This document shows positions 9,173 to 59,423 of a stretch of 64,000 nt of DNA, one piece after another (positions within the stretch are counted from its first letter, which is position 1; each line of letters begins with the position of its first letter). Origin of the DNA: Cyanidioschyzon merolae (lineage: Eukaryota); the NCBI GenBank assembly GCA_000091205.1, contig AP006501.2; one strand, written 5' to 3'. Made by a program: the position numbers and the translations under genes. The notes under the pieces are model-generated. The model had not been told where the DNA came from and did not search any database. It was given only the letters and a program-made list of their open reading frames with translations.

Positions 9173-9411
9173 GCGGGCATGCAGTGCTTTAAAGTTTCCT
9201 TTGAGGCAGCAGGGCCTCGATGAAAAAAATGGACCACGTTCTGGTATGGAACGACACCCATGTCGGAATAAAGCAGAACAGGTCCACTAACTCGGGAGCA
9301 CATTCTTAGGTTCTGGAGGCCGTCTCAGTGCCAGCGGGGAAACCAGCCTTTGCGGGCGTATGATGCGTCTGCTTCCTTGTTCGCTCTCGCATCTCCGTAG
9401 TTAGAGACGCC

Positions 9412-10001: not shown

Positions 10002-10150
10002 ACTCGAGTCCGCGACCAGGTCCCTCTTCCGTCCAAACAGAAGAAAAGGAGCGTTTCGAAGCATATCCCCTGAAAGGCATCATGCTGCTGTCAAATACCG
10101 TTTCGTTGACGACCACATAGACAGAAGGAGTCATCTTTCGAACATTCTTG
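9858..10150 (+). repeat. Dispersed ~300-bp repeat family, copy F1
   Basis: It shares 5' ...GATAGAGGATATGCGGTACAAGATGTTGTCCGCGATGAAACAAGTACCAGAGGA and 3' ...GCGATCACCGCGATGACTCGAGTCCGCGACCAGG...TCATCTTTCGAACA with F2-F5 (about 65-75% identity). Conservation is seen in two reading frames, which is nucleotide-level not protein-level. Confidence 0.7.
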
Positions 10151-10622
10151 ATTAGTTGACTGGCAAAATTTTTTTGAATGTCCGGCATGAGCTTGACAAC
10201 GAGTCGTCAAGAGGCGACGTTGCGTATTTTTCATCACCAACTTAGCGGCACGAATTGTTGCGCTTACGAGTTGATCTAGAATTGAAAGATCGAAAACTTG
10301 GAAGAATACGTGATTCGGGCGTGCCGATCGCCAGGAAAGGAGAAGAATGAGGTCTCCGATGTATGAATCGGATCATGATATCGCTCCGTTTAGGAGTCCG
10401 AGGGCGAAGTCGTCACGAATCGTTTTGCTTTCGATGGTGCAACGAATTCCAGCTGCAAGGCGTCAACCGAGCAACCCTGCAAGAACAACCGAGAATCCGA
10501 ACACCACGTATGAACCCTCAAGCCCTCATTCCTGAAATTCGAATGCCATGGCTTTACATCTATAACAAGTTCAGAGCAGAAATCGCAAGGCAGGAGCAGA
10601 TCGACTCGGTCAGTATTCCGTT

Positions 10623-11461
10623 TTAACCTAGTACCGGTCTCCGTAGAAGAACCAGGCCCAAATAGAAGGCACTGCAGCCAGTTCGCTCGGCTTCGTCATC
10701 TGGTACCTTTCGCTCGTACGCGCTGCTGTGATAACTCGGTGTGTTCGTTGCTGGAGGCGAGCTCGCGTCCTCCTCTGGTGTCGTCCTCAGCACAAGTCCG
10801 TTCTGCGTGAACGAGAAGTTTTCGCAAGGTCCCCGGGTGTAGGTCGTAGCCTTCCAAAGGCCACGGTTCACGCACCGTACCGATGGCGGCTGCAGTGGCC
10901 CTTCGAACTTGCGTGAGGAGGTCCAGGAATCGCTCCGTGCAGCCGTTGATACCCGCCTCGTCAGGCGGCAAAACTGCAAGCACGTTAACTGTATCGCAGG
11001 TCACCTGTTGCAGCTGCAGCAGCGCTTCTTCAGATTCATCCAATTGTTCCAGAGCCGCCGCTTCTGCAGTGTCTCGGAGCAAAACGTCGTAGAGCGCCTT
11101 GGTCGATGCTCGTTGCTCCATTGCCGAGCTTCGTTCCCTCGAAAACGACGTTTCGCAGTGACTGCGTTACGCGCACCGGCCAGGCTGGTGTTCCAGACGC
11201 CCCAAACCGCGGCTCGGAGACTTCTTTTTCTGGTTTCGATTCCGTGAAACTGACCAGCGTTCTCGGACTGCGCGGTTGCTTTCGACAACCAGCCAAGCGA
11301 GCACTATCCGTCTCGTACGAACGTAACGGGGCTCCACTGGTGTCAGAGGCTCGCTCCTCGTCAAGCGTGGCTCGTTGGAATATGCTCTTTGCAGCAGCAG
11401 CAGCAGCAGCAGCAGGAGCGCCTTGAGCGCGATCGACACTGTCGGGCTTACAGTCCTTCAA
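10623..11461 (-). CDS. Possible small gene split across two or three frames (hypothetical; a frameshift or a short intron would be needed)
   Basis: Adjacent same-strand ORFs 11036-11461, 10696-11121 and 10623-10979 lie in different frames and have protein-like sequence (e.g. MEQRASTKALYDVLLRDTAEAAALEQLDESEEALLQLQQV). Call is speculative. Confidence 0.2.
11392..11418. repeat. (GCA)9 microsatellite
   Basis: gcagcagcagcagcagcagcagcagca. Confidence 0.9.
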
Positions 11462-13864
11462 CTCAGTCCTGTTTCATCGCCGCTGAAAGTATTCGAATGC
11501 TTTTTCGCAGTTTGAAGCAGGAAGTCGAAAACACGATGCCATGCGCCGTTTAAATCCTGGACGAGTTGTCTGTAAGATATATGATTTACCGGACAGTTCA
11601 AGGAGTACTGCATTCCTCATTCAGGTCAGTCATACGTCAGATAGTTGAGGAACACTGAATAAAACAAGTACATGCGCTCCGAGCCAAAAATCGATATTCT
11701 TAAAACGTGCGTTCTGTCAATGATAGGAAACGGCCAGTTGATCACCTTACGGAAAGGAAAAGCGATGATAGTAGAAACCAGTGGCGTCTCTGTTCCTCAA
11801 TAGTTTGTTCGTGTGGTCCTGAAAACTTTGGGATACATTGCGAAAACAAGTCCGATTTCATGCACTGCCATCTCGAACCGAAATCACATTTACAGAATTC
11901 CTGAAACGTTGCGGTCGTAGTGAAGCACAAGGAATTTGGTTTGTTTTCCCAGTCGATGGGATTTGCCTCGAACGAAACGGTCGAGGCGTCTGTCGGTATT
12001 CGAGGGAGCCGGGAGCCTCTCGTTTGTACGATCGAAATCGATGAGAACGACGAAATCATCATCTGGTCTACGTGCAGTGGGTTCCAGTGACGACCTCAGT
12101 TTCTCTCGTAGGGAACGGTCACACTGCAGCAACGAATGTACCGAATCATTCAAGACATTTCACCCTGACGTTTGGCGACGTTCTTTTGTTAGACAACGTG
12201 GAATTTCACCGTTCCCGTGCGCTGGAGCTTCTGCCGATTCTATCGGGGAATAAACCCGCTTTTCATTCCTTGGTACTCTCCGTGGCTGAATCCCATCCAA
12301 AGATTGTTTTATAGTGTGAAACGTAATGATCGCTTCACTGGACGAATCGCAAGATCGTCCAGCACACGATGACACACCGCGCCAGATTACGTCTTTCTTC
12401 GGCGAAGGTCCTCACCTGAGGGCATAACGAAATGCGTTCATTTCCAAGAACAAAAGATCTAATGGATGAGCTGGGGCGTGCACCTCAGGAGGTCTACATG
12501 GAAAGAAGGCAACGGGGCGTTTCGGCGACAGAAAAGTACCGAAGGCTGACAGAGCAGCCAATGCAACGGAGGGCACGACCCCGAGGATTCCTTGCATGAA
12601 CGAGTACCACCAAGGGCAATAAACGCATGGAATTCGTGAACCGACACATCACTGCTGCCATCAGTATGAGGAGATGTGCGTTGCTGAAAACGAGATCCGC
12701 GGACCTGAAGCGATCGAACCTTGTGGGGTAGACGCTCAGGCTCGAAGTCTACAGGGAAAACTCTGAAGCCGATAGCAGGCGGCCTGGTCAAAAGAGACTG
12801 GCTGGCGTTAGCGCATGTGTAGATATATCCACTTTATGGTCGTTGGACACTGTTTTGTGTTTCGCTGATCACATATAGAGTTTTGTGCGGCAGCGTCAGC
12901 CAGGCGGCGGCAACGCGTCTCATGGAAAGAATCCTATCGTTCAGCATCACAGAGTGAACCGGAGCAACACGGAATGACTGCACAGCGTCTGCAACGATCT
13001 GGTCTGAGCTTCTCCGTATCACAAAAATGCTATCGGAACGGCGTGGTGATCGCTTCCCCGGATGCCGATGACAACCGAGCATCCGTGCGATGTCTGGTTC
13101 GTCTCATCCATTGCATATCATGATAGAATCCGCCGCCCTACCTTTCGCGAAAACAGACAGCGCCATCAACCTTCCGGGACGCGTAGTAGCGTCCTGTGCT
13201 GATCTACCAATCTAGCGTTCAGTATTGAGCGTTGCATTCTGGGTATGTCGCGCACAGAATCAGTAGCGAGCTGCGCGCTCGCCATATCACGGGCAGAGGT
13301 GTTCCTTGCAGTTGCGTGCTTGATGATGTCAAATATGTGCATCGTGTTTATCAAAAATGTGTCGCTGTGCGCGTAACCGCAGGTTCCCAGCACGAGAATG
13401 TCGAAGCGACCTCATGGAACGATTGCTTTCAGCTAGTGTCTTGTGAAGACAGCGCCAAGCCGACTAGCTTCCGACCGGAAATCGCTGCCGCGTATCGAGC
13501 GTCCCAGCTTGCACCTGTGTTAGGCTGCACTGCCCACAGCATCGCTGCGTGCAACCGTAGCGCCCAAAAACAAGGCCAGTCTAGGTCTTGTACAACATAA
13601 AAACGTCTGGATCAGAACTGAAACCTCTTTCTCGATGACTGGCTCCTAACACGCCCGCATCCAAACGATTGAGGCTTGTATCATCTGCATGACAAGGGCG
13701 AAAACCTGGACCAGAGGACACCGAAGTTTCTCGTGTCCATAATATACAGATATATGCAGTTACTCCCTCGCACCCAGGGTCGCCGCGCCCCTCCGTGTAC
13801 TCCTCGCTGCTACCAGCTGGTAACGTGCGACCTCCTGAGCGTCGGGTTCCAGTACGCGTCTGAA

Positions 13865-31823: not shown

Positions 31824-33964
31824 AACGTTTACCGCAAGAGTCTACGGCATCGACGGGTGAATAGTGCGTCGCAGGATAACTCGTTATGAAGACGGATTAG
31901 CGACGGATTCGACTCCAGCTCTGTTCTAGAGGGCTTATCCTAGGAATCCAAGGCACCGCTGGGTTTACGCTGCGTCGCCGGTACACACAGGATGGAGGAG
32001 CGTGATTGCTGCACGTACCTGCGCTAGATTCGAATTCAGCTGGATGCACTGGGACGTTCACCTCAGGGTTTCAATGCGGGAGTCGGAACCCTTTCCGTCT
32101 AGGGATGCATCTACCTATGTGTTCAGAGCCCGCCTGGATCCAAGGAGTCGTCCACTGTACGCCATAGGATTGGCGATAGTGAGGTAGGCTCTAGTACGGG
32201 CTATGTGTTCTTCGTCATCGACAACAGAGTTCCGGTGCTTGTGCATCGTATTGTAATGCAAAGTTGACGAGCGCGCAGGTTCACTTGCGCGTTGTCCAAA
32301 CCAAGCCTCGTGATTATGGTGCCATTTCACATGAAATGTCTCGTTGGGTCGAAGAAACGCACATTTTCCAACAGAGATGGCATTCTGCGAATCAGTTTCT
32401 GATGTACATAAAAGTCACGTTACCCTGCTGTTACGAATACGCTCACTTTTCCCGATAGAAACGACAGGATGCGAATCAGTGTCCGATGCATAAAGCAGGC
32501 GTCACACTGCAATCCCCCGAGTTGTTGTCGTTATGCCTAGTGTGGTGAATGCCGGAACATCTGTACCAGTACGCCACTTTTATTCTTGTTGTTCGTTTTT
32601 CTCGCAGGTATCCAGCAAATGGATTGCATTCCATAGACTGCAGAAAGGCCCTCGACAGGCTCTACGCTTACACTGGTAGCTTGCGAAATGCAGCTTACCT
32701 GTCCACTTCAGTTATCCTACCTTGAGTAGGCAGATAAACCAGCCTTTTCCTAGGCCCTGTTCCTGAGGCCGTGCACCTGAGACAGAGACAATCAGACGCT
32801 GCCAAGACGACAGTCGCCTTGTCAATACTCTGTACGCCGTAGGTTCTGTAAACAATACTACTGAACAAGCCACAGGATGTCAGGTTTTCATATCTTTGAT
32901 ACGAACGGTGATATAGAGACACCGATGGGCAAAGAAAAAAGCTTGCATCTATGCGAGACCTTCGTGCGATGAATAACGCACTACTGATTTCCTAATGAAA
33001 TGCGAATGCCTCTTCATGGAGTAACGGGCGTTCGTCTCAATCGATGAGGATTCATTCCCGAGAAAACTGGCAGACCTGTATGTCGATACTCGAAATAGGG
33101 CGTACCGCTGTTCGTGAAGAAGAATCAAGCGAGCATTTCAACAACCTCAACCCGAGCGGTGATTCGACGGTATGGTAACGTACGCATTGCCAAATGTACA
33201 GACTCATTCACCACATCATCCTTCGTGGAAGCGCCCTTTGCACCTTCTCCTTCTGACATTCTTCTGTTCTGCTTGTAGACAACGGCATTTTCCATCACTT
33301 AAAAGCGTTCAAGGAGGAACCAGCTGCGTCTGGGGCTGAAGTGCGCTTCACGCGCGGCCATTTTCCATCGTTCAGTCCAGTCCAAGGCGTCTTCTCTGAT
33401 GTCAAAGACCATGCGTATACGCATGAACCAATGGACAAGCCTTTGGTATTTGTGACAGCGTCCGTCGATATGTCGTCCACTGGTACCCCGCACACCAGCT
33501 CCGAACGATTTTGTTGCTCCTCTTGTCGTGCGTAAGTGGGAGCGAAGGGGTTCTTTTCAGTTCACTGGCATGCTCGCGACCGAAAAGTTGACGAGAAGCT
33601 ACCTGAAGAACAGCAGATACATGTATAGAACAGACGAGTTTCGGATGCACCGTTCACCCCCAGCGTCTAGGTCCCGCGGAAAAACACACGGATGTAGAGC
33701 GCAGCGGCTATACCCATGCAATCCTGCCGCGTAAGGGAGTAACGGGAAAAACCACCAGACGAAGGAGTGGGGCGCCCTTCGGAACAGAGCACCAGGAAAA
33801 TAAGGAAGGGGAAACTGTCCAAGCGGAAAACAGCAGCATAGAATCGTTATCAAGACTTCGCTTGCAAACAAATCGACAGTGAGACTGTGCCCAAACGTGA
33901 GACGCAGGCCACCAAAATGAGTCCCGTGGCTTCTTAGACGAGGGCGGCTCGCCTGGTTTCCCTC

Positions 33965-34165
33965 GAGTTGACACACCTCGTTAACAGGCCGCTCACAGGA
34001 GTTCCAGATGCAGTGCTGCCATCAATCCACAGTACTCTGTCATTTTTCACGATCAATCCTTTTCGAGTTGACACACCTCGTTAACAGGCCGCTCACAGGA
34101 GTTCCAGATGCGGTGCTGCCATCAATCCACAGTACTCTGTCCTTTTTCACGATCAATCCTTTGCA
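33965..34165. repeat. 100-bp direct tandem duplication (x2), ~330 bp upstream of the TnpB-like fragment A
   Basis: GAGTTGACACACCTCGTTAACAGGCCGCTCACAGGAGTTCCAGATGC(A/G)GTGCTGCCATCAATCCACAGTACTCTGTC(A/C)TTTTTCACGATCAATCCTTT occurs twice. Confidence 0.9.
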
Positions 34166-34496: not shown

Positions 34497-35060
34497 ATGA
34501 CCGACAACTCGCGTCGGATGGTGCTAGCCTGTGGTGACCAAGGACCTGGTGTCGCGCGCCGTGACTTCACTCCTGCTCTCTCGACGAGAGCGCAAAACGA
34601 ATGCAGGCATCCATTGTTTTCGATGCCCATCGACGCGTCCAGGACGGCAAAAACACATAACGAGCACGAATGTGCGCCGAATCACTTGCAAAATAAGTCG
34701 ATGAAACAAAGATGGATACACGGGATTGTGTTTGGTGCCCAGAGCAAATGCCAGATGGCGAGGAATTCGAACACGAGCGGCTTGCTATCGAGTGATTCTA
34801 TTCGAAATCATGCGTACAAGCACGGTTTGCATCGAGATCTGGACGCATCGATCAACATCTGGAAATGTCGCGTGCTTCGGGAACGTCCATCGGCTTCGTG
34901 TCTAGCGGACTTGCCTTTGGAATCAATCAGTACCCAGACTGGGCGTTGTGCTCAAGCGCTGTGGTCTCATGATGAGAAGCAAAACATTGATCAGGAGAGA
35001 AGTGAGTAGTTTTTTCTGAGTCCAAAGCACTGGTATGGTACTATTTTAGCTCTCCAGCAA
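34497..35060 (+). pseudogene. Fragment resembling the C-terminal OrfB_Zn_ribbon / RuvC-III region of a TnpB/Fanzor-type (OMEGA) nuclease (copy A). The homologous region continues out of frame after the stop.
   Basis: ...KCQMARNSNTSG...HAYKHGLHRDLDASINIWK compares with TnpB C(x2)CG...H-[AR]-D-V-N-A-A-x-N-I. It is a paralog of copy B: NIxKxxVLxxRxSxxCLAxxPxE is shared. The next block HWYGTIL (35037-35052 gcactggtatggtact) matches copy B's in-frame HWYDTRL but is frameshifted here. No intact RuvC-I/II was found upstream, and stop codons lie at 34245, 34308 and 34491 in frame. Confidence 0.4.
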
Positions 35061-36640: not shown

Positions 36641-37256
36641 ACTTCGACGTGTTGTTCACTGCTTGGCACTAGAGCCGAGAGTCGCAAGTGACAGCGGGCT
36701 GGCGCTGCTGTCTACAGCGGGGAAACGTTTGATCGAACCAGAACCCTCTCTACTGCGAACGTACGGTTCGCGGGCAGGCGCCAAGTGACCGTTCCACTCC
36801 AAATCAGTCAACTTTAGACAACTCGTCGACCAAACCTCCACTTGGGACAGGGCTTCGATCCATTCAGTGACCCTTGTGGTACGAGGATGAAGTCCAGTAC
36901 CGAGTTCCTGGTACCAGTTTCTCCGCAGCGTTCTACGACGCTGCGCTTCAAGCCGATGCGCTGCTGCGATGCGTCGTGCGGCACTGAACGCATCCGCAGG
37001 CTCATGTTGTTTTGATACTGGGCTTTGTTGTGGAACTTGCTAGGGAAGCATCTAGGTCAGCGCTGAACCAAGGCCAGAACGGATGGGGCCACTCACTCGA
37101 ACGCCTCTTCTTCCAACTTTGAGGCGGCCGGAACACTGCGAAACAACTGCACGCAGTTACCCGTGCCGTACTCGAATGAAGCTGTATTCCGAACGAGGCC
37201 GGAATCCTGACTCCACTTTTGGATTCACGTCTGATCGGTGCTCATTCAGGAAAATC

Positions 37257-38396
37257 ATGGCGCGTACATCCGAGTATGATGATTTTATGAACGAGGATGA
37301 CGTCATAGCAGTTTGCGCGGCCTTGATAACCGCGACATCTCCAGGTACCGGGGGCGTGTACCACGGAGCGCCCGAAGCGAAACTCTCCGGACTCGTGGCG
37401 TTCGAGCGACTCGGCTCAACGCTATGGACGAATCGCGTTTCCCTGGCAGCATCGGCGGTGGCACGAGCTGCGTCCACAGTAGTCATGTTCCCGCTGGATA
37501 CGCTTAAAACACGTCTGCAGAGTGCAGACACTGCAGCGCTGGGTCCGCGCGAGGCCCTGCGCAAGGTCCTGACCCAGGGCCACTTCTATCGGGGACTAGG
37601 TTCAACACTGTTCGGTCAGGTGCCGTATGGTGCTCTGACGTTTGGTACATACGAGTGCTATAAGCAGGCACTCGAGGAATGGGGTCTAGCGTCTCGGCGG
37701 CTTCGGTGGATGCTTGCTGCGGTGCTCGGTGACCTCACCGGCTCGCTGTGGCTGACCCCCAGCGAGCTCATTAAGCAGCAGCTACAAAATATGCATAACA
37801 CTGGGACCAGGGCGGCACAAGCGGCTACCGTTTGGCAGGTCATTGGCCAGAACTGGCGACAATATGGTATCGCTGGTTTTTATCGAGGCTACAGTGGTCA
37901 GGTCGCTCGCGATGTTCCGTTTCGGGCGATTCAGCTGCTTCTTTTCGAGGACGCACGAGAGCGCCTCGAACGCTATCGACGGCGAGCACTGACACCTTTG
38001 GAGAATCTTGCAGTTGGAGCGTATGCAGGCTGTTTAACTGCAGCGGTAACGACTCCACTAGATGTGATTAAAACACGCTTGATGACGGATCGAACGTATC
38101 GTCACGCTGGAGACGCGCTCTGGCAGCTGTTGCGAACGCAACCGCGGGCTCTTTTCCGGGGAATCGTTCCACGCGTGCTCTATATTGCTCCCTCAAGTGC
38201 GATTTTCTTCATCGTTTACACTTTTCTACAGAGACGCTGGGATGCCAAAGCAGCAGCTTGGGAGAAACGGGGACGGGATGCTTCGTGTACGCCAACAAAG
38301 CGAAACCGGGGTGGCTCGCGCTTTTGTGCGATCGATTCGAAGTTTTCGGGGAGAAAACCCTTCTCGCTCGCTCGGTCAATGGGTTTGTGCGCATAG
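37257..38396 (+). CDS. Mitochondrial carrier family protein, S-adenosylmethionine-carrier-like
   Basis: Three Mito_carr repeats show the signatures PLDTLKTRLQ, PSELIKQQLQ and PLDVIKTRLM (compare SAMC PLDTIKTRLQ / PLDVAKTRIM). The ORF track starts at 37083; the Met at 37257 (MARTSEYDD) fits carrier N-termini better. Confidence 0.8.
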   Translation: MARTSEYDDFMNEDDVIAVCAALITATSPGTGGVYHGAPEAKLSGLVAFERLGSTLWTNRVSLAASAVARAASTVVMFPLDTLKTRLQSADTAALGPREALRKVLTQGHFYRGLGSTLFGQVPYGALTFGTYECYKQALEEWGLASRRLRWMLAAVLGDLTGSLWLTPSELIKQQLQNMHNTGTRAAQAATVWQVIGQNWRQYGIAGFYRGYSGQVARDVPFRAIQLLLFEDARERLERYRRRALTPLENLAVGAYAGCLTAAVTTPLDVIKTRLMTDRTYRHAGDALWQLLRTQPRALFRGIVPRVLYIAPSSAIFFIVYTFLQRRWDAKAAAWEKRGRDASCTPTKRNRGGSRFCAIDSKFSGRKPFSLARSMGLCA

Positions 38397-39589
38397 CCCC
38401 TGCAGAGTTCATGCAGCGAGCTCGTGCATGGAAGGTCTCCTGTTCTGAATGTCGCGTTGGAACGCTCGAGGTCGTTACCTGGGATTCGCTCCACGCTCAA
38501 TGCGCACCAAATGCGATGTGGCATTCTCAGCGGCATCATTCCATTAACATTTGAGACTGGTTATCGCGCATTTTCGCATCCGGTCAAACTGTTTTCGTGG
38601 TAATGCGCGACATGCCCTGAAGACTGCGAAACATGCCGCTGGACGTTCCTTGGACGGCTGCATTCGCAATGCCGATGGTGCGGTCGTTCTTGATAATGAA
38701 GACATCGGACATATTGTGCCAAACTTTGTGATTCCGCTGGTCGCGTGCCCGCTACCCCAGAATATCCAAATAACGAGCTGTGGACGCGCCCCAGCGAGTG
38801 ACGCTGGACACAAGACGACGCTGTTTCTGCCACGAACGATTGACTCGGTTATCCATGATGTATTTCATTGCGGTGACTTGTAGTTGTTCTCGTTGCATTT
38901 GATGCTCGAGCTGGAGCGCTCCCCCACCGTTGACTGCAGATGAAATGGAGACGACATCCGATGCTGTTTTCGTCGAAGCATTTACTCATTTGGATCATAG
39001 GACGAGAGAGCACGCCAGGCTGTGTGCGAATTTCTCGGATGCCGGAATGATGCGGAAGGCCGCATCACTGACTGAATCGTTTTTCGCGTCAGCACATGGC
39101 GATGCCCACGGGAGAAATCGTTGCTTGCCTAACTGAATGCTTGCAGTGACAGGCTGCAAGTGCATTTACGGCAACATGTTCTAGCATTATCAATGAAATA
39201 AATGCACCCTAAACGTTTGCCCAGCTCGTGCCAGAAACCCGAAATACCGATGCAAGAGCGGAATCCTGCAGAGAGACAGCTTCCGCCAAAGCCACCCGAA
39301 CAGCGCCTAGCGTTAGCAACGTCAGTCGACCTGGGCGCAAGACGCCCGGTTGCATGGTATTCGCTGCCTTTTTCGTCGCATCTATATGCTTGGTGTTCAC
39401 GAGGGTAGCTGTAGCGCCACGAACAGTGATGAATCCTCGTCAGCATAGAATGGAATAGGTCTTCTCATGTGACATGGGCATACATGCGAAAGTTTGGGGC
39501 TCTCCCCATCGTTAGAAGCACCAGCTTTTGCGGGATTTTTCTTCAACTGCTTCCTTTTTCTTTGGCATATCGCTGGCTTTCCATAGGTT

Positions 39590-40179
39590 GGTCTCTCCCT
39601 TCTCTCCATAACGATTGTCAGCAGCCGATGGATGTTGCTGGCAGCGTTCAGGTACCGATTTCGCTGCCCCGGGTCGCTTTCGATGCATGATATGTACCGA
39701 CGATAGTTGCGGTCTGCGCTTCGCTTGCCAGTTGCATCTTCTTCGTATACGGCCGCGGTGTACTCGTCGCTGCGATGAAACTTGGCTCTGATTAGGTGTT
39801 TCCACACGTATCGATCGCGCGTCCTCTTCCCAGCGTCGTCCTGTCGTACGTGATCTCTTGCCTCATCGCTCGGTAGATGCCCTTGACGTGTACAGAGGGT
39901 TCCGCACGATGCACTCGTCTGTTTCCGCACCCGGTGAGGTACACAACGATCCCGGACTTGTTCTGGACGGATCCATCGGCGAGCGTGCTGCCCGCTCCAC
40001 ATGCACAAGTGCGTGCTGCTCCATTCGATAGAGGATATGCGGTACAAGATGTTGTCCGCGATGAAACAAGTACCAGAGGAAAGCTCCAGGCTCGAGAAAA
40101 AGTCGAGCCATTTCGATCTGTCTACGTGCCTTTTGTACAACGCTATGACGCTAGCTCCGTTGGAAGCGATCACCGCGAC
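39590..40179. repeat. Copy 2 of the ~590-bp near-identical duplicated segment. It is truncated relative to copy 1: similarity to the dispersed family ends at 40179, whereas copy 1 continues to ~10150.
   Basis: The alignment to 9412-10001 was read directly. The minus-strand ORF 39397-40266 shares the same 190 aa. Confidence 0.9.
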
Positions 40180-40847
40180 ATCCAAAAACAGAAGCGAACT
40201 ATGTATGAGCAACGAAATACCAATTGCTTTCTCTCCACGGCAGACGTCGAAACGTTGAACAGCCATCAGTATTCTCGAAAGTTTGCCTTTTCATTAGGAA
40301 GGTCCCGTGACCCACACGAGTCTACGAAGCCCGTGCTTCATGATCTCGCCAGTGCCGAGTGCTATGGCGCGATCTGAGCAACTCTTACGGAACGCAGTTT
40401 GTTCTGGGACTAGGGGCGGGGCGGCTGCATCAAGATATGTCCCTGGTCGCAATGGTCTCCCAGCATATCGCTTCGTGCTATCACAGGCCGTTGGTCTGTC
40501 TGCACAGCCTGCAGGCTCCCAGAATAATGAAGGATCCCGATTCTGTGACCAGTGAAGCACGCCTGGAGCCGAATACCTTAATGGTATCGCATAGCCGTTC
40601 TGTCTCCGTACTGCATATGCACCAGCGGTGTAAGCGCACCTTCAGGTGCATCACAAAAGGTTAGGTGCACGACAGAGCATACGACATAACCAGTACATCC
40701 GAGAGAAGGTCTGAAAAATGGAACTTCAAGCTAGGGTGTACTATCATGGACGCTTTCCCAAAAGCCAATATCCATCTCACAATCTAGCACCCATGGTCCA
40801 TGGAAACGGCCTGTCAAACGAAAAAAGGTCCAGCGATCTCCGCGATG

Positions 40848-41458
40848 TATATGAGCGCGCGCTCACAGAAACGCATCGCCGCCTATGCGATCATCAGAAG
40901 AACAGATTTTTTTACTAGGGAAAGCCTGGAAAAGCGCGAGCGCGCGCTCACAGAAAAGCATCGCCGCCTATGCGATCATCAGAAGAACAGATTTTTTTAC
41001 TGGAAAGAGCCTGGAAAGGCGCGAGCGCGCGCTCACAGAAACGCATCGCCGCCTATGCGATCATCAGAAGAACAGATTTTTTTTACTAGGGAGATCCTGG
41101 AAAGGCGCGAGCGCGCACTCACACAAACGCATCGCCGCATATGCGATCATCAGAAGAACAGATTTTTTTACTAGGGAGAGCCTGGAAAGGCGCGAGCGCG
41201 CGCTCACAGAAACGCATCGCCGCATATGCGATCATCAGAAGAACAGATTTTTTTTTACTAGGGAGAGCCTGGAAAGGCGCGAGCGCGCGCTCACAGAAAC
41301 GCATCGCCGCATATGCGATCATCAGAAGAACAGATTTTTTACTAGGGAGAGCCTGGAAAGGCGCGAGCGCGCGCTCACAGAAACGCATCGCCGCATATGC
41401 GATCATCAGAAGAACAGATTTTTTACTAGAGCCTGGAAAGGCGCGAGCGCGCGCGCTC
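40848..41458. repeat. Tandem array of ~7 units of 79-88 bp (minisatellite). Each unit has a perfect 12-bp palindrome GAGCGCGCGCTC, a 10-bp palindrome CGCATATGCG and a T6-T9 run.
   Basis: The unit AGCCTGGAAAGGCGCGAGCGCGCGCTCACAGAAACGCATCGCCGCATATGCGATCATCAGAAGAACAGATTTTTTTACTAGGGAG recurs at 40923, 41008, 41094, 41179, 41267, 41350 and 41429. ORFs spanning it are artefacts. Confidence 0.9.
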
Positions 41459-41709
41459 CCCAGGCGGCCGGAAACGCCGCCGTCGCGTCGTCGACCTCGA
41501 TCGCCGGCGCTCGCAGCGTTCGGAACAGGCCAACGGCCGGGAGGCGTTTCCCTGTTTGTTCCTTCGCTCGCTTGAGCGCTTGAGCGCCAGCTCGTGTTCA
41601 AGCAAGTGTACGAGCTCTGGTTTGCGTAAGTTTTCAGCATCTTCAGATCAGTATCGTGTATCGTTAGGATCGTTGAACAGCTCGATCTTGCGACCTGGAG
41701 AACTGCGTT

Positions 41710-42798
41710 GTGCGCATCACGAAACAAACAGACGCAAGACGAATTGTGTGTGTGCGTGCGTGCGGATCGGTGCGCGACCTCCGTCTTGTGTTTGTTTTCT
41801 CGCTTATGCAGACACCTTGTCGCTCCACAGAGCTGTTGAGTATGAGTGGTGTGAGTGCTGTCGGATCGCTTCGGTCAGCGTCGAGAACTTCGTCAGCTGC
41901 GTCGTTAGCGGCAACGAGGCGTTCGCGCTCGCCTTCGCCGATCAGCCAGTACGGCCTGCGGCAGAGCGCGCCACCAGCGGTGCGCTCGGTAACACCTGGA
42001 GTGGTTCCCTCGCCGACTAATAATGCCCCGTGTTTTGGGGGCGCTTCGGCGAGTGCTATATCGTCACCAGCGGGCCCCGAGTTGCAGTGTCCGAGACCGC
42101 GGTGGCCTGTGGCGTTTTCCGCAGCCGCATGGTGCAACAGCGGTTCATGGCAGACGTCAAGCACTGGCGGTAACGCGTTCGGCGTGAGCGGACTTTATAT
42201 CAACGGGGTTGAGGAGGCAAACGCTTTGGAAAGCGAAGCAGTGACGGCTCAGGCTGCTGTGCGACCTGGGGGTCGCTGGAGTGCCGGCGTCACGCGGGGG
42301 TCGGTCGTATCCGGGCGACCGAGCGGTTTTGGTGGTGGTAGTGGTGGTGGTGGCGGCGGCAGCAGCAGCAGCTCCAGTGCAGCGTTGATTCTGCAACGCT
42401 CGTCCTCATCACAGTCAGTGCATTCACTGACACCGCCGCCGCCACCCTTGGGCTCGACGTGCTCGTCGCCGCTCTCTTCATCGCCGACCATTGGAGCCGG
42501 CATGCAAACCGAGTGGCGGGCATGGCATCCTACGTTTCGTATCGATGAGACAGTAGAATGTGCAGCGGAGCCACTTTGCGTGCGTCCTGTTGCTATCAGG
42601 CGCGCAAACTCGTATACTGCTCCGTCGCCGGGTCATCACGGGGTCGCGATTCCATCACCGCTCGCTGGAGCACATGGCATGGCACCCTTTTTAAGCAGTG
42701 GCTATGCGACCCCAAACAAGGTTGGTGAGTGTGGCGTTTCGCCGCCTGTGCGTGCAACGAATCCGCAGTGTCGTGATGCGCGCTTCTGTGTTCCCTGA
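41710..42798 (+). CDS. Possible Ser/Gly/Ala/Pro-rich low-complexity protein (hypothetical)
   Basis: This is a 362-aa ORF with GGGSGGGGGGSSSSSS and SP-rich stretches. It includes a (GGTGGT)n microsatellite. It could equally be non-coding low-complexity DNA. Confidence 0.25.
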   Translation: MRITKQTDARRIVCVRACGSVRDLRLVFVFSLMQTPCRSTELLSMSGVSAVGSLRSASRTSSAASLAATRRSRSPSPISQYGLRQSAPPAVRSVTPGVVPSPTNNAPCFGGASASAISSPAGPELQCPRPRWPVAFSAAAWCNSGSWQTSSTGGNAFGVSGLYINGVEEANALESEAVTAQAAVRPGGRWSAGVTRGSVVSGRPSGFGGGSGGGGGGSSSSSSAALILQRSSSSQSVHSLTPPPPPLGSTCSSPLSSSPTIGAGMQTEWRAWHPTFRIDETVECAAEPLCVRPVAIRRANSYTAPSPGHHGVAIPSPLAGAHGMAPFLSSGYATPNKVGECGVSPPVRATNPQCRDARFCVP

Positions 42799-44454
42799 CG
42801 GGCATGTACGCATGGAGAAACAGTGTGATTCGCTTTCCGCGCGTTTTTGCTCAAGTAGTGCCTTGACTTGTTAGGCCTTGGATACACTGCTCGTTGCAGA
42901 ATACACATACTGTACTAGTCTGGACTTGTCTGACTCGGCTAATAACGGATGTCTGACTTTCAAGTGCGGTCTCGAGAGGCAAGTTGCCGGCGACTCTATT
43001 TGGCACTATCGTTGCAGACTCTGAAGCACCGGTAACGACCTTCTCGTGTACATTTTATCCGCTTTTTTTTTGGCAAAGCCCGCGCTTCACATACCGCCCA
43101 GACCACTGAAAGCTTCGGCCGCTGAACGCTTGTTCAATGCCGTACAGCTGTTCACGGATATCGTGGAAAAGGACACACCGCATCGTCGTCGGATGGACGC
43201 CATGGTAAATTGGTGGTGGTGGTGGCGTGTACATTACCCAGTATCTCGTGCTTTATGATGGCGATGGTGATGGTGATGATGGAAGCTACACTGATCCTTT
43301 TTACATATTGGAGCAAATAACATTTGAGTCTATTTCAGGGGGAAACGTATATTTACGAAAAAGAAGCGGTTTGTCATGCGACGACACTCGCAATAAATGT
43401 CGGTTGTCGCCAGTACAGCGCCTCGAGCCTGGTTCCCGTAAACCATCTGCACTGTAAATCGTATCTGAGACCTGTGTGCATCTTGTCTCATGTGGAGATG
43501 CAAGCGAGTGCCTTGGCGTGTGGAGTGCTAACGCACGAGCCCCAACTGACTCCGCGTGGCACGGTATCCTCTGACGCTACAACCGACGCGGATACATCAT
43601 ACACATCGGATCAATGCAGAGGGCGCATGTGCGATGCCCTTTCGCACTGCACCATCCGGGATGATCCTGCTGCATTCGACTTGTGATGCACGTTGCGCTT
43701 GATCGTAGTGCGACCAATGCAGAATTACCCGCGTCGCATGCGTATATGGTGCGAGAATGCAGGGCGTCATAGGTGCTTCTCGAGGCGCACGCTTTCACTA
43801 GACGATGTGTCATGCAGGGCGACGGGGAATCACACCGCTCTGGAAGAGCGGCTGGATATCCCCCAGCGCTATTTATTGTATCCATTTAAGCGTAGAATAG
43901 TATGGGGTCGTTTCTCGAACACGAACCCAGTAGATGAAGTCTGGGTCTGTTTGAGGTTTGATCAACACCCGCCTTTGTGGACTTTTTATGCGACTGCTTC
44001 CTTTTCCTCTCCCTGACATCCTAACTTGAGTAAACCGGTCACTCCTTTTGCCTCCAGCTCCTTTATCAGCACTCTAAGGATGCTGATGATGGCGTTGATG
44101 TGCCGATTGCGCTGCTTCCGGCAGGTGCCGACTTATTTCATGTATCGGCAGACGTTACGATCTACGCTTGACTTTTCAGTTGCATCTTCGTGGGACAACT
44201 CCTCGGTGTAGCCGTCACTGCGGTGAAATTGCGCTATGGTGAGGTGTTTCCGTCTATCGACAACTAATTCTCCATTTTAGCGCGCACGATGGTGCGTCAA
44301 GACTTTTTCATAGCGCGGCACATGACCTTGATGGGAACAGAGGGCTCCGCTTGATACCCGATTCCTTTTTCGCGCTAGGTGCTATGCCCTACAATCACGG
44401 ACTTTATCGAGGTGATACACACGACAAGTGCTCTGTCCGCTGAACGTGCAGGCG

Positions 44455-44775
44455 ATTCCATGGTATAGAGGATCTGCAGAATGCGATACTGTCCATGTTG
44501 AAGCAGACACCGGACGGAAGGCAGATGCAGGATGGAGAACAAGTTCAGAAACCTTGCATCTGTCTTCGCTTCATATGCGCAAAGCGATCATGCATGCTCC
44601 AACGAGAGCGGTCGCTGTACTGATTAGAGTCCAATTCCAGGATCCGTTTCCACATAGGCGGGAGAGCATGGCGCTGGAAGACCCAAAAAGGAACTACACC
44701 AGCTCCAACGACAAGATCGTACAAGGAGTGTGCACGGCGTTTTGTTACGATACCGATAGATGAGTTTCGAACGTC
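44455..44775 (+). repeat. Dispersed ~300-bp repeat family, copy F3
   Basis: GGATCTGCAGAATGCGATACTGTCCATGTTGAAGCAGACACCGGA at the 5' end; GAGTCCAATTCCAGGAT internally; GAGTTTCGAACG at the 3' end. Confidence 0.55.
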
Positions 44776-45236
44776 CTGTACACACCATGAACTGGGGTGC
44801 AAACTTCAGAAAGTCGAGGTGGAAAAGTGCCAGCGGAGCCCTGAGGATATAAAAAAGTATGGACCGCTGATGGAAGAGCAAATGGAAAGGAGAGCGAAAG
44901 TGCGAGGATTGCTTGCGTCATTAAGTACAACCAGTGATGGCAAGAAACGTATGGAGTTTTTGAACCGAGACCTGAACGCCGCTACCAGTATACGGAGATG
45001 TGCGGTGCTGGAGAACAGACCTCCAGAGTAGACAAGAGAGAACTTTATTGGACAACCTCTCAAAGTCGAACTATATGAGAAAAAGTTGGAAGCAGTAGTA
45101 GGTGGCCGGTCCAAAAAGACAGAGGCGTCTGCACGTTAGTTGGAGATGTTTTGTCTAGCGCGGGTTTCTCGCCACTACTGTACCACTGGCAGCAACGTTT
45201 TTCTTTTGAAAGACGTTTGTTTCCAGGGGCCTCTCT

Positions 45237-48222: not shown

Positions 48223-49241
48223 GCGAACAAATCAGGCGTCATCAGATGCACTTTATCTCATACCGCATGGTAGAACCCCACCTACAACGTCATCAGGACC
48301 GTGTGAGGTGAAGCACACTGCGGGCTACCCAGTGGACGAGCGTGCGCTCACGCCTGCAACAGAACTTGTACGCTCCGAGGCTCTCGCCCAGAGGAAGCCA
48401 GCGATCATAGGATACAGCATGCGGAGCGTTTAACGGAACTAGAAATCGACGAGAGCCAGCGATACCCGTCCCTGGCAGCTAACGAGCGATGAAGCAAATG
48501 TGCAAGCGCAAGACCAAGGCGCGCAGAGGAACCGGTACGGTAGACGAACGAGAATACCTGACCATAGCCATGTGTCACCGCTGGCGGAGACGTCCCGAGC
48601 CTCAACACAATCAGTAGGGAACTGACGAGCAACGCACTACATCGCGACGACCCCCCTGTGCATAAAATGCGTAGAAAAGAGCTGGAAGCGTCTATATCAG
48701 CACCTCAGCGCTGCCATCAACATCCATCAACTGCTGAGTACGGCACCAGAGGTAAATGAGAGACCAGCGTATTCAAACCCGGAGATAGGAGAGACGAAAA
48801 ACAAAGCAGTCGCAGAAAAAGCCAACATATGTTGGTGTTGGTAACAGAAAAGACAGACCGAACCGTATCAAGTCTACATCCGAGTCAGAAGACCCGTTCC
48901 ACTTTATGCGGAAAGAGGTGCGGCGTCATCCAGAAGTGTGCGCGGAGCTTTCAGCTTCCGTAAAGGCACGTCAGCAAACTCGACAGTTGCATACCAGCGG
49001 CGATAACCGAACCACAGAATGCAAAACATACCCAAGACGACCAGAGCAAGGAGAAACAAACGCTCTTTTGTCGCACAAACTCTCGAGTTTAACCGAACCC
49101 GCGTTCGCTCTGGAGCAGTCGGAAGCCCCGTGGTGTTCAGTCTAGTGCGCCCAGCGGAGCGGAGGCGGCTCCCTACAGACCACCGGTGCGACCGCATCGA
49201 CCAGGGTCGCCAGCGACGCTCCAAAACTGACCACGAGTCGC

Positions 49242-53774: not shown

Positions 53775-54133
53775 ACACGCTACAGTGCTACCGCGAATGC
53801 ACTCGGTACTTCGCGCGAAATAGCGGCTTTGGCGTGTGTCGTACCTGCGAGGCAGGTTTCCGCTCTCTGGAAAGCGTCAGGAAGCGCAGGATACCGGGCA
53901 TCGATCTGCCGAGGAAAGCGTGCCAAGCCGTGGCAACTGTGATGTTCATATATAGCTCACGATGTCAATTTTCGTTCCTAAATGGGTTCCTGTCATCGAG
54001 CACTGCTCAATGGCACGACTGGGCTGTCGGCAGCCGCGCTTCCTGCGCGATCAGGTCGAGTCGTGTGAGGCATTATGATCTTGTACAAGTTGTACAGGGA
54101 ACCGTTACATGTGTCTCTATAGTCGGCCCGCTA

Positions 54134-54346
54134 GTCTGCCTGAACTGGTAAACGAGTATCATACCAGTGCACTGCTCCAACCCGGATATTTCTTTTCATC
54201 CAAAGTCTGCCTGAACTGGTAAACTAGTATCATACCAGTGCACTGCTCCAACCCGGATATTTCTTTTCATCCAAAGTCTGCCTGAACTGGTAAACGAGTA
54301 TCATACCAGTGCACTGCTCCAACCCGTATATTTCTTTTCATCCAAA
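54134..54346. repeat. 71-bp tandem repeat x3 overlapping the 3' end of TnpB-like fragment B. Each unit contains the inverted repeat CTGGTA-N11-TACCAG.
   Basis: GTCTGCCTGAACTGGTAAAC(G/T)AGTATCATACCAGTGCACTGCTCCAACCCGGATATTTCTTTTCATCCAAA occurs three times. Confidence 0.9.
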
Positions 54347-54833
54347 GTCTGCCGCCATCCATGAAAATACCCACACTGCGCACGAAATGATTCTCAGGAA
54401 ACTTTGCTAGGCATACAACCGATAGGCGGTTCGGGAGCACAAAAGATTTCGGGATATTAATCGAGGTGTTCACGTCTTGGTGCAGAGCGTGCTTGCACGA
54501 CTGATTGCTGGTGGATCCATGCCAGAAGACGCCGCACACACATTCCATTGCCTCGCCATCTGACGCTCGATCAGCGTGCCGTCTACAACGTCCAGCGACG
54601 GGCTCTGTTTTCCGCTCTTCTTCTCTGTCTGTTTCATCGTGCATTCGCGCTTGTGATGCGTTTATGTCGTCCTGAGCGCTTCGGTGGGAATCGATCAGTA
54701 CGGATCCCTGCATTTGTTGTGTGCTCTCGTCGAAGGAGTAGAAGTGCAGCCTTTGCACGCGCGATCGCAATTCCAGTGCCATAGACTGACATGAAACGAC
54801 GCGACCTGTAGGTCGTTTAAGTCTACAACGCAT
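54267..54833 (-). pseudogene. Fragment resembling the TnpB/Fanzor-type nuclease C-terminus (zinc ribbon plus RuvC-III-like motif), copy B; probably a truncated relic
   Basis: RRHADRASDGEAMECVCGVFWHGSTSNQSCKHALHQDVNTSINIPKSF compares with ISDra2-type TnpB ...TCSECG...W.CACGAHHDRDVNAAKNI. An in-frame stop lies 42 codons upstream of the Met (no stop between it and the ATG), so at most ~230 aa versus >=400 for TnpB. The C-terminal codons are part of a 71-bp x3 tandem duplication. Confidence 0.4.
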
Positions 54834-56951
54834 TGAATGAAGTGGCGAATGCAGGCGTCCTGCCTGGGTACAGCCGAATGAGTGTATGAGTAGAGCGCGC
54901 GCGCTCGTACGTCTGCCAACGACCGAATCGCATGAATCCGATAGATGTTCATATACGCTCTATATGAAGTGTCAAATAGCATCCACTTCTCTGCACTATG
55001 GCGCTCAGCGTTTCGGCGTAGGTCCCGCTGCCGTCATGCCACTCCATCGTATACCTCTGGACGCGTATCATGCCCGACTTGTGGCGTAGCGAGCACTGGG
55101 GAAATTCAGAAGCTTCATCTGCTTCCCATTCAGGTCCTTGCTTCAGAACACTTCAATTATCGGTGCGTAGACGAGCACGATATCCTTGGATATAGGGTAC
55201 ACGTGCGCCATCAATATTCGCTCTTCATCTACCTAGAGTGGTTGGTAGCGACTCTCGTTGCTGGGGTCGGGGTGAGGTTTCACGAGCTTCACGAAGTGCG
55301 TCCATAATGATATTCTGTCGTTCTTCACTGTCTTGGTCGTTTTCATTCCATTTCGTATCGGTAAACGAGAAGCCTTTGACAAGCTCCATCAGTTCTGCTC
55401 GCAAAGTTGCTCGAATGCCTCATAATTCCTCGTAGAGACATGCCGTAGCGCACTTTGCAAACTATTCACAACTCAAGCATCCACCGTGAAAGCATGCACC
55501 ATGATATAATACACGGAGAGCAACTCGAGCGGAAGTTTCTGGAAACCAGGGCGCCTGGATTCAGGGAGCGTGTCTTCTCTGCTCTTGACGCTTCAGTTCA
55601 GGAACATGTCACAGCGCAAAAATTCATGCGAGGCAGTTATCACGCTTCAACTGTGCTTTGAACAAGTCCTCCGCCTGGCCGCGGTCGTCGAGAGCAGAAA
55701 CATGACCTTGGACGAGGTCTAGCGACACTCGCTCTGTTTGCAATACTTCGTGCGAGCTCGGTTTCGCCTCGAGCACTGCCGCCACCAGTTCGTGATCCAC
55801 CTCCAATGACATGCCGAAAAACCGCTTTATGGATGTGAACGAGTCGTCTATTGGTTCGTGCTCGTAAACATAGGTCTCAAAGCAGAGAAGACTCCATGGA
55901 CAGGATAGAACCAGGGAGACTACGCTGGCACGAAGCACAGCTCATCGCTAGTCTGTGCTGTGCAGTCTGTGACCGCTTTTGCGTGATTGAAAGCAACGTC
56001 GTCTAAAAGCAGAACAGACTAGTTTGCAAAGACGCAGTTAAGAAGGGAGCCTCGACCAAGATTGAGGTCATGCATTATCATGCCCGCTTCACAATTGTTC
56101 ACTGATCATATCATGGCATTGCGTCTTGGGCCATTGTTGTCTTTATATGCTCCTGTCTCTTCTTTACGAACAGCGCTTTGCCCTTGGTTGTTGCGTGCCT
56201 AGTTACAGGTCTTCGCTTTATCCGGAATATACTCTCAATGAGCGAGACGAGCACCCGTCCCTCCTCTCAAACGTGTTCCGGCTTCCGTAAAACTGCGATG
56301 AAGGACTGTCCTACGAACGGCGATTTCCCATCGAGGCGCCCGTCTTCTGTCCCCATGTGTATCCCTTCAATACCAATCGTGTGAACTGTGCGGAAGCTGT
56401 ATACCGTGCGGTATCTCTTATGGTTTTTCTTAGAAAAAAAAGCGATGGACTAGAACAGATTGATCAGATAATTGTCATGTGGATCCTCTTTGACACATCC
56501 GGTTTTAGATACGCAACGTACAGGATAAGGACTAGAAGCCGAATGCTTCACCCGCCTGCTGACCATGGAATAATTTACTTGCAGAAGCAAGGCCCTTTCT
56601 CGCAAGGTAGCAGTCAGATTATCAAGTCATTCCTTGACCTTTCTCCAACTTACCGGATACGTTCCTTTTTGTTGAATACCCGTGAGAAAAACGAAGAAAA
56701 GCAAAAAACTGGCTGTCGCAGATTCTCTATGAATCACCGCTCTGAGGATAACGTTTCGGGATCGATGTGTCGAGCGAGGCATCCACCAGACGCGCGGAGC
56801 CCGGGACCCCGCAGTCGGAGGAGCGGCAACAATTCTGACCCGGGATCGTTAGATACAACGCACCGCATATCATACCTGACTTTAGGAGAATGCTCCATTC
56901 GAGAGATCTTCGGGGTGCTGAACCTGCCCCAGAAACTAGCCATAGTGCCGC

Positions 56952-57083
56952 AAGCTCCCCATTGGGCGCTTTATGGAGACAGAGTGTCATTGCCCTGGTC
57001 ATGGAGGTCACGACGCAAGCTCCCCATTGGGCGCTGTATGTAGACAGAGTGTCATTGCCCTGGTCATGGAGGTCACGACACGA
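56952..57083. repeat. 66-bp tandem duplication x2
   Basis: AGCTCCCCATTGGGCGCT(T/G)TATG(G/T)AGACAGAGTGTCATTGCCCTGGTCATGGAGGTCACGAC occurs twice. Confidence 0.9.
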
Positions 57084-58617
57084 GACACGTTGACGCTCTG
57101 AACGCCATGCATTGACGCGAATTCGGCGCTGAACGAATTAGATGGTATCCCAATCGAGCAGTAGGCAGCTTGTCTGCATAATGTCAGTACTATAGAGAAT
57201 GAGTATCTCGGAAATGAATTCCGGAGTATTTTGACGAATACAAATACGCTGGTCGAAGAGGAGTCTCCATTGCGCGTAGCATTTCTTTTCGGAAGCTGCA
57301 CCCTTGTCGGCTACTGATAGAACGATGGACGACGTACAATATTCCTGAGATTCACATGATATCTGAACTTTATGTAGGTGACGAACCTCGACATTCGACG
57401 TGTAGCAGTAAGGGCCTTGGGAGTTATTCTTCGTTTTCGGCCTCTCGATAGTTTTGTTTTTCAGAGGGGCTCTTTCGACATTGTACCGCTGGGGTTCTTC
57501 GTGCGATTGTCTTCAAAATGATTCGTGACGTCCCTGAACAAGCGTTCATACAATTACCCATTGCATTGACCATTGCGTGCCCGCGGGCCCGCACTTGGAT
57601 CCGTTCCTCACAAGTCATCTGCTCAATTCACGCTGTTTTTTTGCGCTTCATTGTTTCAGCTTTTAGGCAACTAGTGGACACAGCGATTCACGCCGCTGGA
57701 TTCATGACGAACAGAGAAATCTCCGTCGTGCCTTGGCAACATCGTCACAAGTTTATGCGGAAAGTTCGACGAACTCTTCAAGTCATGGATAAAATCTGAA
57801 AGACAAATCCACGTGTCTTTGTACTCGTCACCGGTACGGCATACGACATAGGCATGATACCTCTCAGGAGGTATACCCACGAAAGGCTTTTTCTCCTCTG
57901 GGTACTTAAAAAAGGATGTTGGTCACGGACTTTCGTCATCGCAGAGATCCGTACCAGTAGAGATTTCGTCTCCGTTTTGCACGAAGGAAGCATCCATAGA
58001 TCGACATCCCTCGACTTGTGCTCCGGTCCGGATTCTGCTTCCTGTACTCATTTCATCATATATAGCATTTCGTTCACCAGACCCTCTATCGAATGGAACA
58101 GCTTGCGCCTGCCTATGTAGCGCACAGCATATTCACCAGGCGCGTCGCATAGAAGATGCTCTTGGTCGTAGTGCACGATATCGGGTGTGGAAACTGACGA
58201 TTTGTGCATCGGCGGGAGCATGCTGGACATGTCAAGTGCATGTACCGAGCGTTGAAGCAACCATTGACGCACCGCAGGGCAGCGCTCTAGTGATGAGGAT
58301 GTTCGATGGACACTTGGAAACACCTGACCACAGCTACGTGCCAACGCTATGAATAGCGCACCAAAATTGCATAAGAAGATGATGCTGAAAATTGCAGGAG
58401 ATGCGTAGATCCCAACCTCCTGTTGAACACGAAATGCATGGACAACAGCCAGCAACTGCGAAATCGAGCCTTGAATGCTGCCATGCACACCGTTCACAGC
58501 TTGTGAACGGTGCTGGATCGACATTAGCGCCAAGCGTCTTAAAGGCCGCGAGTAAGTGTGAGGAATAGGAAGCAGTTCCAAAAAAAGCATGCTCGCGAAC
58601 GCTGGCGTTCATGACTC

Positions 58618-58828
58618 GGGTCGAAAGAGACCCGAACATTAGCGCATATGCACGTGTTCATAGCTTCGTTCCACGCTATGCTGATATGGGTCTGAAAAGA
58701 CCCGAACTTTAGCGTACATGCCCGTGTTCATAGCTTCGTTCCACTCTGTGCTGGTATGGGTCTGAAAAGACCCGAACTTTAGCGTACATGCCCGTGTTCA
58801 TAGCTTCGTTCCACGCTATGCTGATACG
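58618..58828. repeat. 70-bp tandem repeat x3. Each unit begins with a GGGTC-GAAA(GA)-GACCC stem-loop (6-bp stem, GAAA-type loop).
   Basis: GGGTCTGAAAAGACCCGAACTTTAGCGTACATGCCCGTGTTCATAGCTTCGTTCCAC(G/T)CT(A/G)TGCTG(A/G)TAT occurs three times. Confidence 0.9.
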
Positions 58829-59423
58829 GATCTAGAGAGTTTCCCAAGACGAGCCGATGTGCATACCCGTAGCACATGTGGCATTCCGCACCCTCGATAG
58901 AATCATGTTCGATTCATCGATCCAAAAGTCAAAAAAGTTGCTGGTTAACCTGTATCCCGCATCTTTTGAGAGCAGCGCTCTAGATTCACAGGTCTACCTC
59001 ATAATAACCCGTACTCTTGATGCATTTGCGGATGCTATCCAAAAAAGACCTATCCATTGCGCTAGTTCATGGCTTGGATCACGTTCCACGCTACATAGCG
59101 ATGATTCGCGAATATCCACAGCTCTTGAAGCAGGCTCTCTCACGTGGTATCACGCAACCCTGCAAATAATCTTGACCACGAGAAAGCAAGTGTTCTTAAA
59201 CTGATCTGCTGCGGTTGTTGTGCGTTGCTGCGCGGTACAGAACCAAGTTCGGTGCACGTTACCCCGGTGGTGTTCTCGAAAGAGCGTCGCGTTTGGCGGT
59301 TCCAGTTGCAAAGGCCCAAGTCGTGCGTTTGCGGAAAGACAGGTAGCACTACAACACTTTGGCCTGGCTTCATTGCTCTCCATGATCCACTTGCTCGTTC
59401 CCTGATCAAACTAGTAGAGGCAC

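Follow-up and report, generated by a model that had tools for sequence, protein, structure and literature searches.

The tandem array that precedes the hypothetical gene CMS455C of Cyanidioschyzon merolae is most probably a non-coding minisatellite (VNTR) present at a single locus, in the 5′ flank of this gene and about 110-715 bp upstream of its transcript starts. It lies in a window of 64 kb, the whole stretch of DNA analysed here, which is eukaryotic and intron-poor, has about 55% G+C and carries genes for Tfb4, a mitochondrial carrier, an M3 peptidase, diphthamide synthase and GLE1. The number and order of the units vary between haplotypes that are about 99% identical, in agreement with a reading that the original prediction had kept as a fallback, namely a simple minisatellite with slippage in its T-runs.

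Structure of the array

Tandem Repeats Finder, applied to the 64-kb window, reported a repeat at 40853-41454 with a period of 85, 7.1 copies, 94% matches and a score of 1051, and thereby bears out the predicted tandem array of about seven 85-bp units. This tandem structure far exceeds chance. Unit boundaries were set by splitting the array at its GC palindrome, with which the array both starts and stops. The resulting features are the following.

40853-41458: 85-bp array, seven units (80-87 bp) followed by a terminal 14-nt GC palindrome, 94% matches
40853-41444, no strand assigned: seven head-to-tail minisatellite units (Tandem Repeats Finder, unit list, alignment with the units of other haplotypes)
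Unit starts: 40853 (85 bp), 40938 (85 bp), 41023 (86 bp), 41109 (85 bp), 41194 (87 bp), 41281 (84 bp) and 41365 (80 bp)
41445-41458, no strand assigned: terminal partial eighth copy, consisting of the GC palindrome GAGCGCGCGCGCTC

The 14-mer GAGCGCGCGCGCTC recurs in another intergenic region of the window, at 54893-54906, and one metagenome locus (L003) ends exactly there.

Several details of the unit had been described as constant, and some of them turn out to vary. The perfect 12-bp palindrome GAGCGCGCGCTC is intact in six of the seven window units, the exception being unit 4, which carries GAGCGCGCACTC. The second palindrome, also thought to be present in each unit, is less general: CGCATATGCG is limited to units 4-7, while units 1-3 have the non-palindromic CGCCTATGCG. 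Across haplotypes the latter is the majority form (15 of 22 units), so that CGCATATGCG is a polymorphic, minority variant. A run of T6-T9 does occur in every unit, as anticipated, with lengths of 7, 7, 8, 7, 9, 6 and 6 in units 1-7; ACTAGGGAG, said to follow this run throughout, stands directly 3′ of it in four units, and in the remaining three it does not. The view that units differ mainly in T-run length is upheld, the T-run being the most variable feature among the aligned units.

The array is not AT-rich. Open reading frames that cross it are artefacts, since 85 is not a multiple of three and indels in the T-runs shift the frame. One of these artefacts, the frame at 40885-41583, served as a proxy for contigs with an array identical to that of strain 10D, and no exact-protein record was found for it. 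A full-text literature search found no papers on the unit sequence, on SRR6207159 or on CMS455C.

A single locus with several haplotypes

An exact 22-mer common to all seven units was found in four metagenome contigs, all of which correspond to the array locus, with 98-99% identity. The same 22-mer had no match among 185,579 prokaryotic genomes, nor had a second 22-mer of the unit any among viral contigs, and no further copy of the unit was found elsewhere in the 64-kb window. The single-locus claim thus covers the metagenomes, by exact 22-mer search, and the window. Thus, rather than the genome-wide satellite distribution that the original prediction had envisaged as the sign of a repeat with no gene function, we find a VNTR at one locus.

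One metagenome contig, L001, spans the whole array and has five units, compared with seven in the window, with flanks about 99% identical. Two others, L004 and L019, start inside the array and hold at least six units each; L019 has two of the 80-nt deletion units, versus one in 10D. Complete counts come from L001 and from the finished 10D sequence alone. As short-read contigs break inside the array (L002, L003, L004, L010, L019 and L034), the incomplete counts are lower bounds, and all metagenome copy numbers derive from short-read assemblies in which partial collapse is possible. The seven-unit structure of 10D, which comes from a finished genome, should for that reason be reliable.

Alignment of 22 units from the window and the other haplotypes distinguishes 16 different units. 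Variation concerns the length of the T-run, the purine stretch after ACT, and the positions CGC[C/A]TATGCG and ATCATC[A/G]GAAG. The GC palindrome is the least variable part, intact in 20 of the 22 units, and this near-invariance could reflect selection rather than recent homogenisation. Runs of units also recur in a shifted register, the pattern left by unequal exchange: window units 2-4 correspond to units 3-5 of L004, barring T-run length (T7 in window unit 2, T6 in L004 unit 3).

Neighbouring genes and their transcripts

The array is situated between the carrier gene and CMS455C, the gene directly downstream.

37083-38396: mitochondrial carrier open reading frame, 100% identical to C. merolae 10D BAM83006.1
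41806-42798, plus strand: CMS455C (CYME_CMS455C), hypothetical protein of 330 aa, 100% identical to BAM83007.1 / XP_005539043.1
41568-41593, plus strand: cluster of CMS455C transcript 5′ ends (19 of 22 contigs), the inferred transcription start region
41459-41567, plus strand: spacer of about 110 bp separating the array from the transcript starts, with the GCC-rich run GCCGCCGTCGCGTCGTCG (MAFFT alignment)
39520-40178, plus strand: copy of the 5′ module of a dispersed element (the ‘590-bp duplicate’), 95% identical to 9342-9999 over 661 aligned bp; it neighbours the array and is not part of it

BAM83006.1 and BAM83007.1 are numbered consecutively, and the interval between them that holds the array measures 3.4 kb (carrier stop at 38396, CMS455C ATG at 41806), instead of the gene-free 2.8 kb first given. 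The CMS455C protein has no Pfam domain. The duplicate described as lying beside the array is indeed a neighbour; its alignment extends over 661 bp rather than 590 bp and ends 675 bp to the left of the array.

Evidence on transcription comes from assembled, polyadenylated environmental JGI contigs that are about 99% identical to the flanking genes. They represent transcripts, as indicated by their non-templated poly(A) tails: three CMS455C contigs end in 10-14 non-templated A after window position 44052, and two carrier contigs end in such A runs, after 39237 and 39217. At the other extremity, 19 of the 22 CMS455C contigs begin, or switch to unrelated chimeric sequence, at 41568-41593, while the remaining three begin slightly upstream, at 41550, 41535 and 41445. 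None of the 22 extends into full array units, the one that starts at 41445 doing so at the terminal palindrome. We infer from these observed ends a transcription start cluster of CMS455C near 41570. Relative to this cluster the array spans about -110 to -715 and is oriented like the gene. The array is therefore outside both neighbouring polyadenylated mRNAs and upstream of the transcript 5′ ends (41458 versus 41568-41593), in a collection of polyadenylated, assembled transcripts that would miss short non-polyadenylated RNAs made from it.

The region of the transcript starts has a small repeat of its own. The 8-nt sequence CGCTTGAG is present 2.4 times at 41569-41587 (Tandem Repeats Finder), exactly at the 5′-end cluster, and it is polymorphic, with one copy fewer in the environmental transcripts L012, L027 and L033.

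Other observations concern the ends of these mRNAs. The CMS455C 3′ UTR, about 1.25 kb long, extends as far as one of the diverged copies of the dispersed element (43963-44632), the poly(A) site at 44052, seen in three contigs, being inside this copy; other contigs stop near 43400 and 43660, where alternative 3′ ends are possible. In the carrier mRNA, which is polyadenylated at 39217 or 39237, the 3′ UTR is about 820-840 nt long (38397-39237), and one carrier contig reads through to 39704, inside a dispersed-element copy. Many environmental transcript contigs are chimeric (L011, L013, L014, L016, L017, L020, L021, L023 and L029-L032). In these, the CMS455C transcript is joined, precisely at its 5′ or 3′ end, to unrelated sequence, an assembly artefact that calls for caution where the contigs serve as genomic context.

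Comparison with other Cyanidiophyceae and probable origin of the array

The gene order Tfb4 (minus strand), carrier, CMS455C orthologue and Rrp15 (all three on the plus strand) is kept in three other Cyanidiophyceae: the L005 lineage (L005-L007), Cyanidiococcus yangmingshanensis (L008) and Cyanidium caldarium (L009). In the L005 lineage the carrier gene has 74% amino-acid identity. CMS455C orthologues occupy the syntenic position in L005 and L008, with 54% identity, that of Cyanidiococcus being recovered by protein search as well. At the syntenic site of L005, L008 and L009 the 85-bp unit is absent.

Upstream DNA of the relatives cannot be aligned save for one short block, in which a GCC-rich run comes after a (GC)4-6 motif. 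The terminal palindrome of the array, together with the adjoining downstream sequence, aligns to this conserved block, and in the MAFFT alignment of upstream regions GCCGCCGTCGCGTCGTCG falls together with the GCC runs of the relatives. Within 21 kb each, the only GCGCGCGC sites are those at 12369 and 12447 in L005 and those at 11904-11915 and 11950 in L008; in both, these sites are roughly 300-400 bp upstream of the CMS455C orthologue. In L005, and also in L006 and L007, an independent tandem duplication (37 bp, 2.3 copies, L005 positions 12373-12456) has units bounded by GCGCGC and lies about 250-330 bp upstream of where the CMS455C homology starts.

A palindrome at both ends of an array is the footprint expected from duplication between two copies of the motif. 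Taken together, the GC motifs of the relatives, the L005 duplication and the palindromic array ends fit an origin by mispairing of GC motifs followed by expansion. The ancestral promoter region would have contained at least two alternating-GC palindromes tens of bp apart, as relatives still do. If two of these motifs mispaired, through slippage during replication or unequal exchange between sister chromatids, one motif and its 73-bp spacer would have been duplicated. From two units onward, further unequal exchange and gene conversion could have expanded and reshuffled the array, and polymerase slippage would alter T-run length. This duplication mechanism is deduced from the array end points and from the relatives.

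Such a scenario would require no effect of the array on CMS455C. Any effect would act at the DNA level on the promoter of this gene, since each added unit brings one more GC motif and one more poly(dT). It may then be asked whether the GC palindrome, by itself or together with the poly(dT), is a promoter element of CMS455C (one that binds a transcription factor, for example, or that excludes nucleosomes or is prone to form Z-DNA), whose eight-fold repetition would raise or tune expression. The place of the array, 110-715 bp upstream of the transcript starts and oriented like CMS455C, would suit this proposal, as would the fact that the (GC)n motif is the sole part kept at the array position in two other species, where it is also the sole such motif in 21 kb each. 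The high conservation of the palindrome among units (20 of 22 intact) points the same way, and most other (GC)4 sites precede a start codon by 100-300 bp (window 5820 and 24792; L009 7113 and 9841). The counts of these other sites are tiny, however, and the motif is about as frequent outside the array as chance predicts (6 matches at 5 places, versus 5.95 expected). Moreover, recent unequal exchange accounts equally well for the similarity of the units, and (GC)n, as a mutable microsatellite, can persist without function. On balance we regard this promoter-element proposal as unlikely; a DNA-level effect of the array on CMS455C expression, suggested by position, is plausible at about that low level.

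A more elaborate form, to which we accord slightly less credence, would make the GC palindrome a candidate CMS455C promoter element common to Cyanidioschyzon and Cyanidiococcus. Amplified eight-fold together with poly(dT), it might act as a ‘volume knob’, with 5 to 7 or more units giving differing expression, and might in addition be a recurrent duplication breakpoint, as suggested by the independent 37-bp duplication in L005.

Searches for RNA genes

The original prediction had preferred a different reading, in which the units would be tandem small-RNA genes (pol III-transcribed, SL- or snRNA-like, or snoRNA), each terminated at its T-run. Every unit does contain a T6-T9 run on the plus strand and short inverted repeats, and most units have UGAUGA on the minus strand. 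A C/D snoRNA family of Rfam even gave a weak match (E 0.37, 20.9 bits), which is to be compared with a gathering score of 40. At gathering score the comparison with Rfam models that had been proposed for the unit yields nothing, nor is there any match in the whole 64 kb, and lowering the threshold to E values up to 10 for region 40000-42200 returned matches at chance level only. ARAGORN found no tRNA-like gene.

Structure does not favour RNA genes either. The unit folds like its shuffled controls (z of 0.17, 0.38, 0.16 and -0.08 for both strands in two phases). The sole plus-strand hairpin, an ATCGC/GCGAT stem, is separated from the T-run by 15 nt, and no plus-strand site in the units resembles an intrinsic-type terminator with a G+C-rich stem and a T-run within 0-2 nt. 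The scan of the minus strand gave the same weak 5-bp stem with a mixed tail, counted once per unit. The minus-strand UGAUGA has no box D partner, and an A/G polymorphism changes it to CGAUGA in 4 of 22 units; the palindromic CGCATATGCG is, as noted, a minority variant. Finally, the unit is missing from the syntenic site in Cyanidiococcus, the L005 lineage and Cyanidium, and red algae are not known to employ SL trans-splicing. With no Rfam match, folding like that of shuffled sequence and a unit that relatives do not conserve, small-RNA genes are a very improbable explanation.

Readings of the unit as an E2F-type site, a C/D box or an Sm site were checked by eye and did not fit the consensus sequences.

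Dispersed element and other repeats in the window

The proximity of a mobile-element relic raises the question of whether the array might be an internal or flanking repeat of that element. C. merolae contains an element of about 3.2 kb, related to WSV486/Fanzor1 (CMe-1A), in 150-250 copies, with a 635-bp derivative, TE-N2_CMe (PMC1955436, PMC3627910). The dispersed copies of the window fit this reported CMe-1A / TE-N2_CMe element. In addition to the module copy at 39520-40178 they comprise the following.

9342-12798: element copy
43963-44632 with 44787-45120: element copy
57798-58416, minus strand: element copy
48696-48845, minus strand: element copy

Apart from the 95% pair (9342-9999 and 39520-40178), the copies are 64-72% identical. 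The window holds four further intergenic minisatellites.

33963-34162: 100 bp, 2 copies, also in metagenome haplotypes
54133-54353: 71 bp, 3.1 copies, also in metagenome haplotypes
56949-57079: 65 bp, 2 copies
58618-58833: 70 bp, 3.1 copies

The haplotypes in which the 100-bp and 71-bp arrays are present are L001 and L003.

In favour of a link with the element, copies of its module of about 660 bp stand on both sides of the array, at 39520-40178, where the relic ends 675 bp to the left, and at 43963-44632. Other minisatellites of the window are also near dispersed-repeat copies, for instance that at 58618-58833, which adjoins the copy at 57798-58416. Yet neither the longest copy (9342 to about 12798) nor the others have any similarity to the unit or to 40179-40852. 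In addition, the unit 22-mer is restricted to the array locus in metagenomes that contain contigs of C. merolae longer than 100 kb, whereas a genome contains 150-250 copies of the element (PMC3627910, PMC1955436). We reject an origin from the transposable element, hardly credible on this evidence, since no element copy in the window is similar to the unit or to its left flank.

In the open reading frames at 39397-40266 (minus strand) and 34497-35009 (plus strand) we suspect RuvC-III-like motifs of the TnpB/Fanzor type, a lead for which the support comes from the literature on the C. merolae element; in the second, HRDLDASINIW resembles the RuvC-III motif of TnpB/Fanzor proteins. Neither frame had a match in Pfam (E up to 10) or in a PDB sequence search.

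Discussion

Our analysis leads to a simple picture: the array is an ordinary promoter-region minisatellite seeded on a conserved alternating-GC motif, and neither a small-RNA array nor a satellite. It matters little beyond its own locus. It illustrates nevertheless that the very compact, repeat-poor genome of C. merolae still holds fast-evolving, promoter-proximal minisatellites, and it could serve as a strain-typing marker in natural Cyanidioschyzon populations. As C. merolae permits homologous gene replacement, the array is also an easy test case for the effects of repeat number on a promoter. The (GC)n-bounded duplications in two lineages provide, besides, a small natural example of alternating-GC duplication breakpoints.

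Among known systems, SL RNA, snRNA and 5S arrays share with our array short tandem units, each with a T-run. This likeness is superficial: the array has no Rfam match, no stable fold and no conservation beyond C. merolae-like strains, and it counts only seven copies, at one locus adjoining an mRNA promoter. Satellite DNA resembles it by tandem repetition, but forms long blocks at many sites, whereas the array covers 0.6 kb at a single interstitial locus flanked by two expressed genes. A centromeric or satellite nature was ruled out by size, composition and single-locus distribution.

Unstable tandem repeats with variable copy number and poly(dA:dT) tracts are found in promoters of Saccharomyces cerevisiae, where they tune expression. 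The C. merolae array resembles them in being located just upstream of a transcription start, in its poly(dA:dT) tracts and in a copy number that varies between strains, a likeness of position and sequence; most promoter repeats of yeast have far shorter units. The closest correspondence is with minisatellites, or VNTRs. The array consists of 85-bp units, within the 10-100 bp range of this class, arranged head to tail over about 0.6 kb; it is locus-specific and non-coding, and the number, order and interspersion of its variants differ between close haplotypes. Human minisatellites of the classical type often have a G-rich strand and a link to recombination hotspots, while the units described here are bounded instead by an alternating-GC palindrome.
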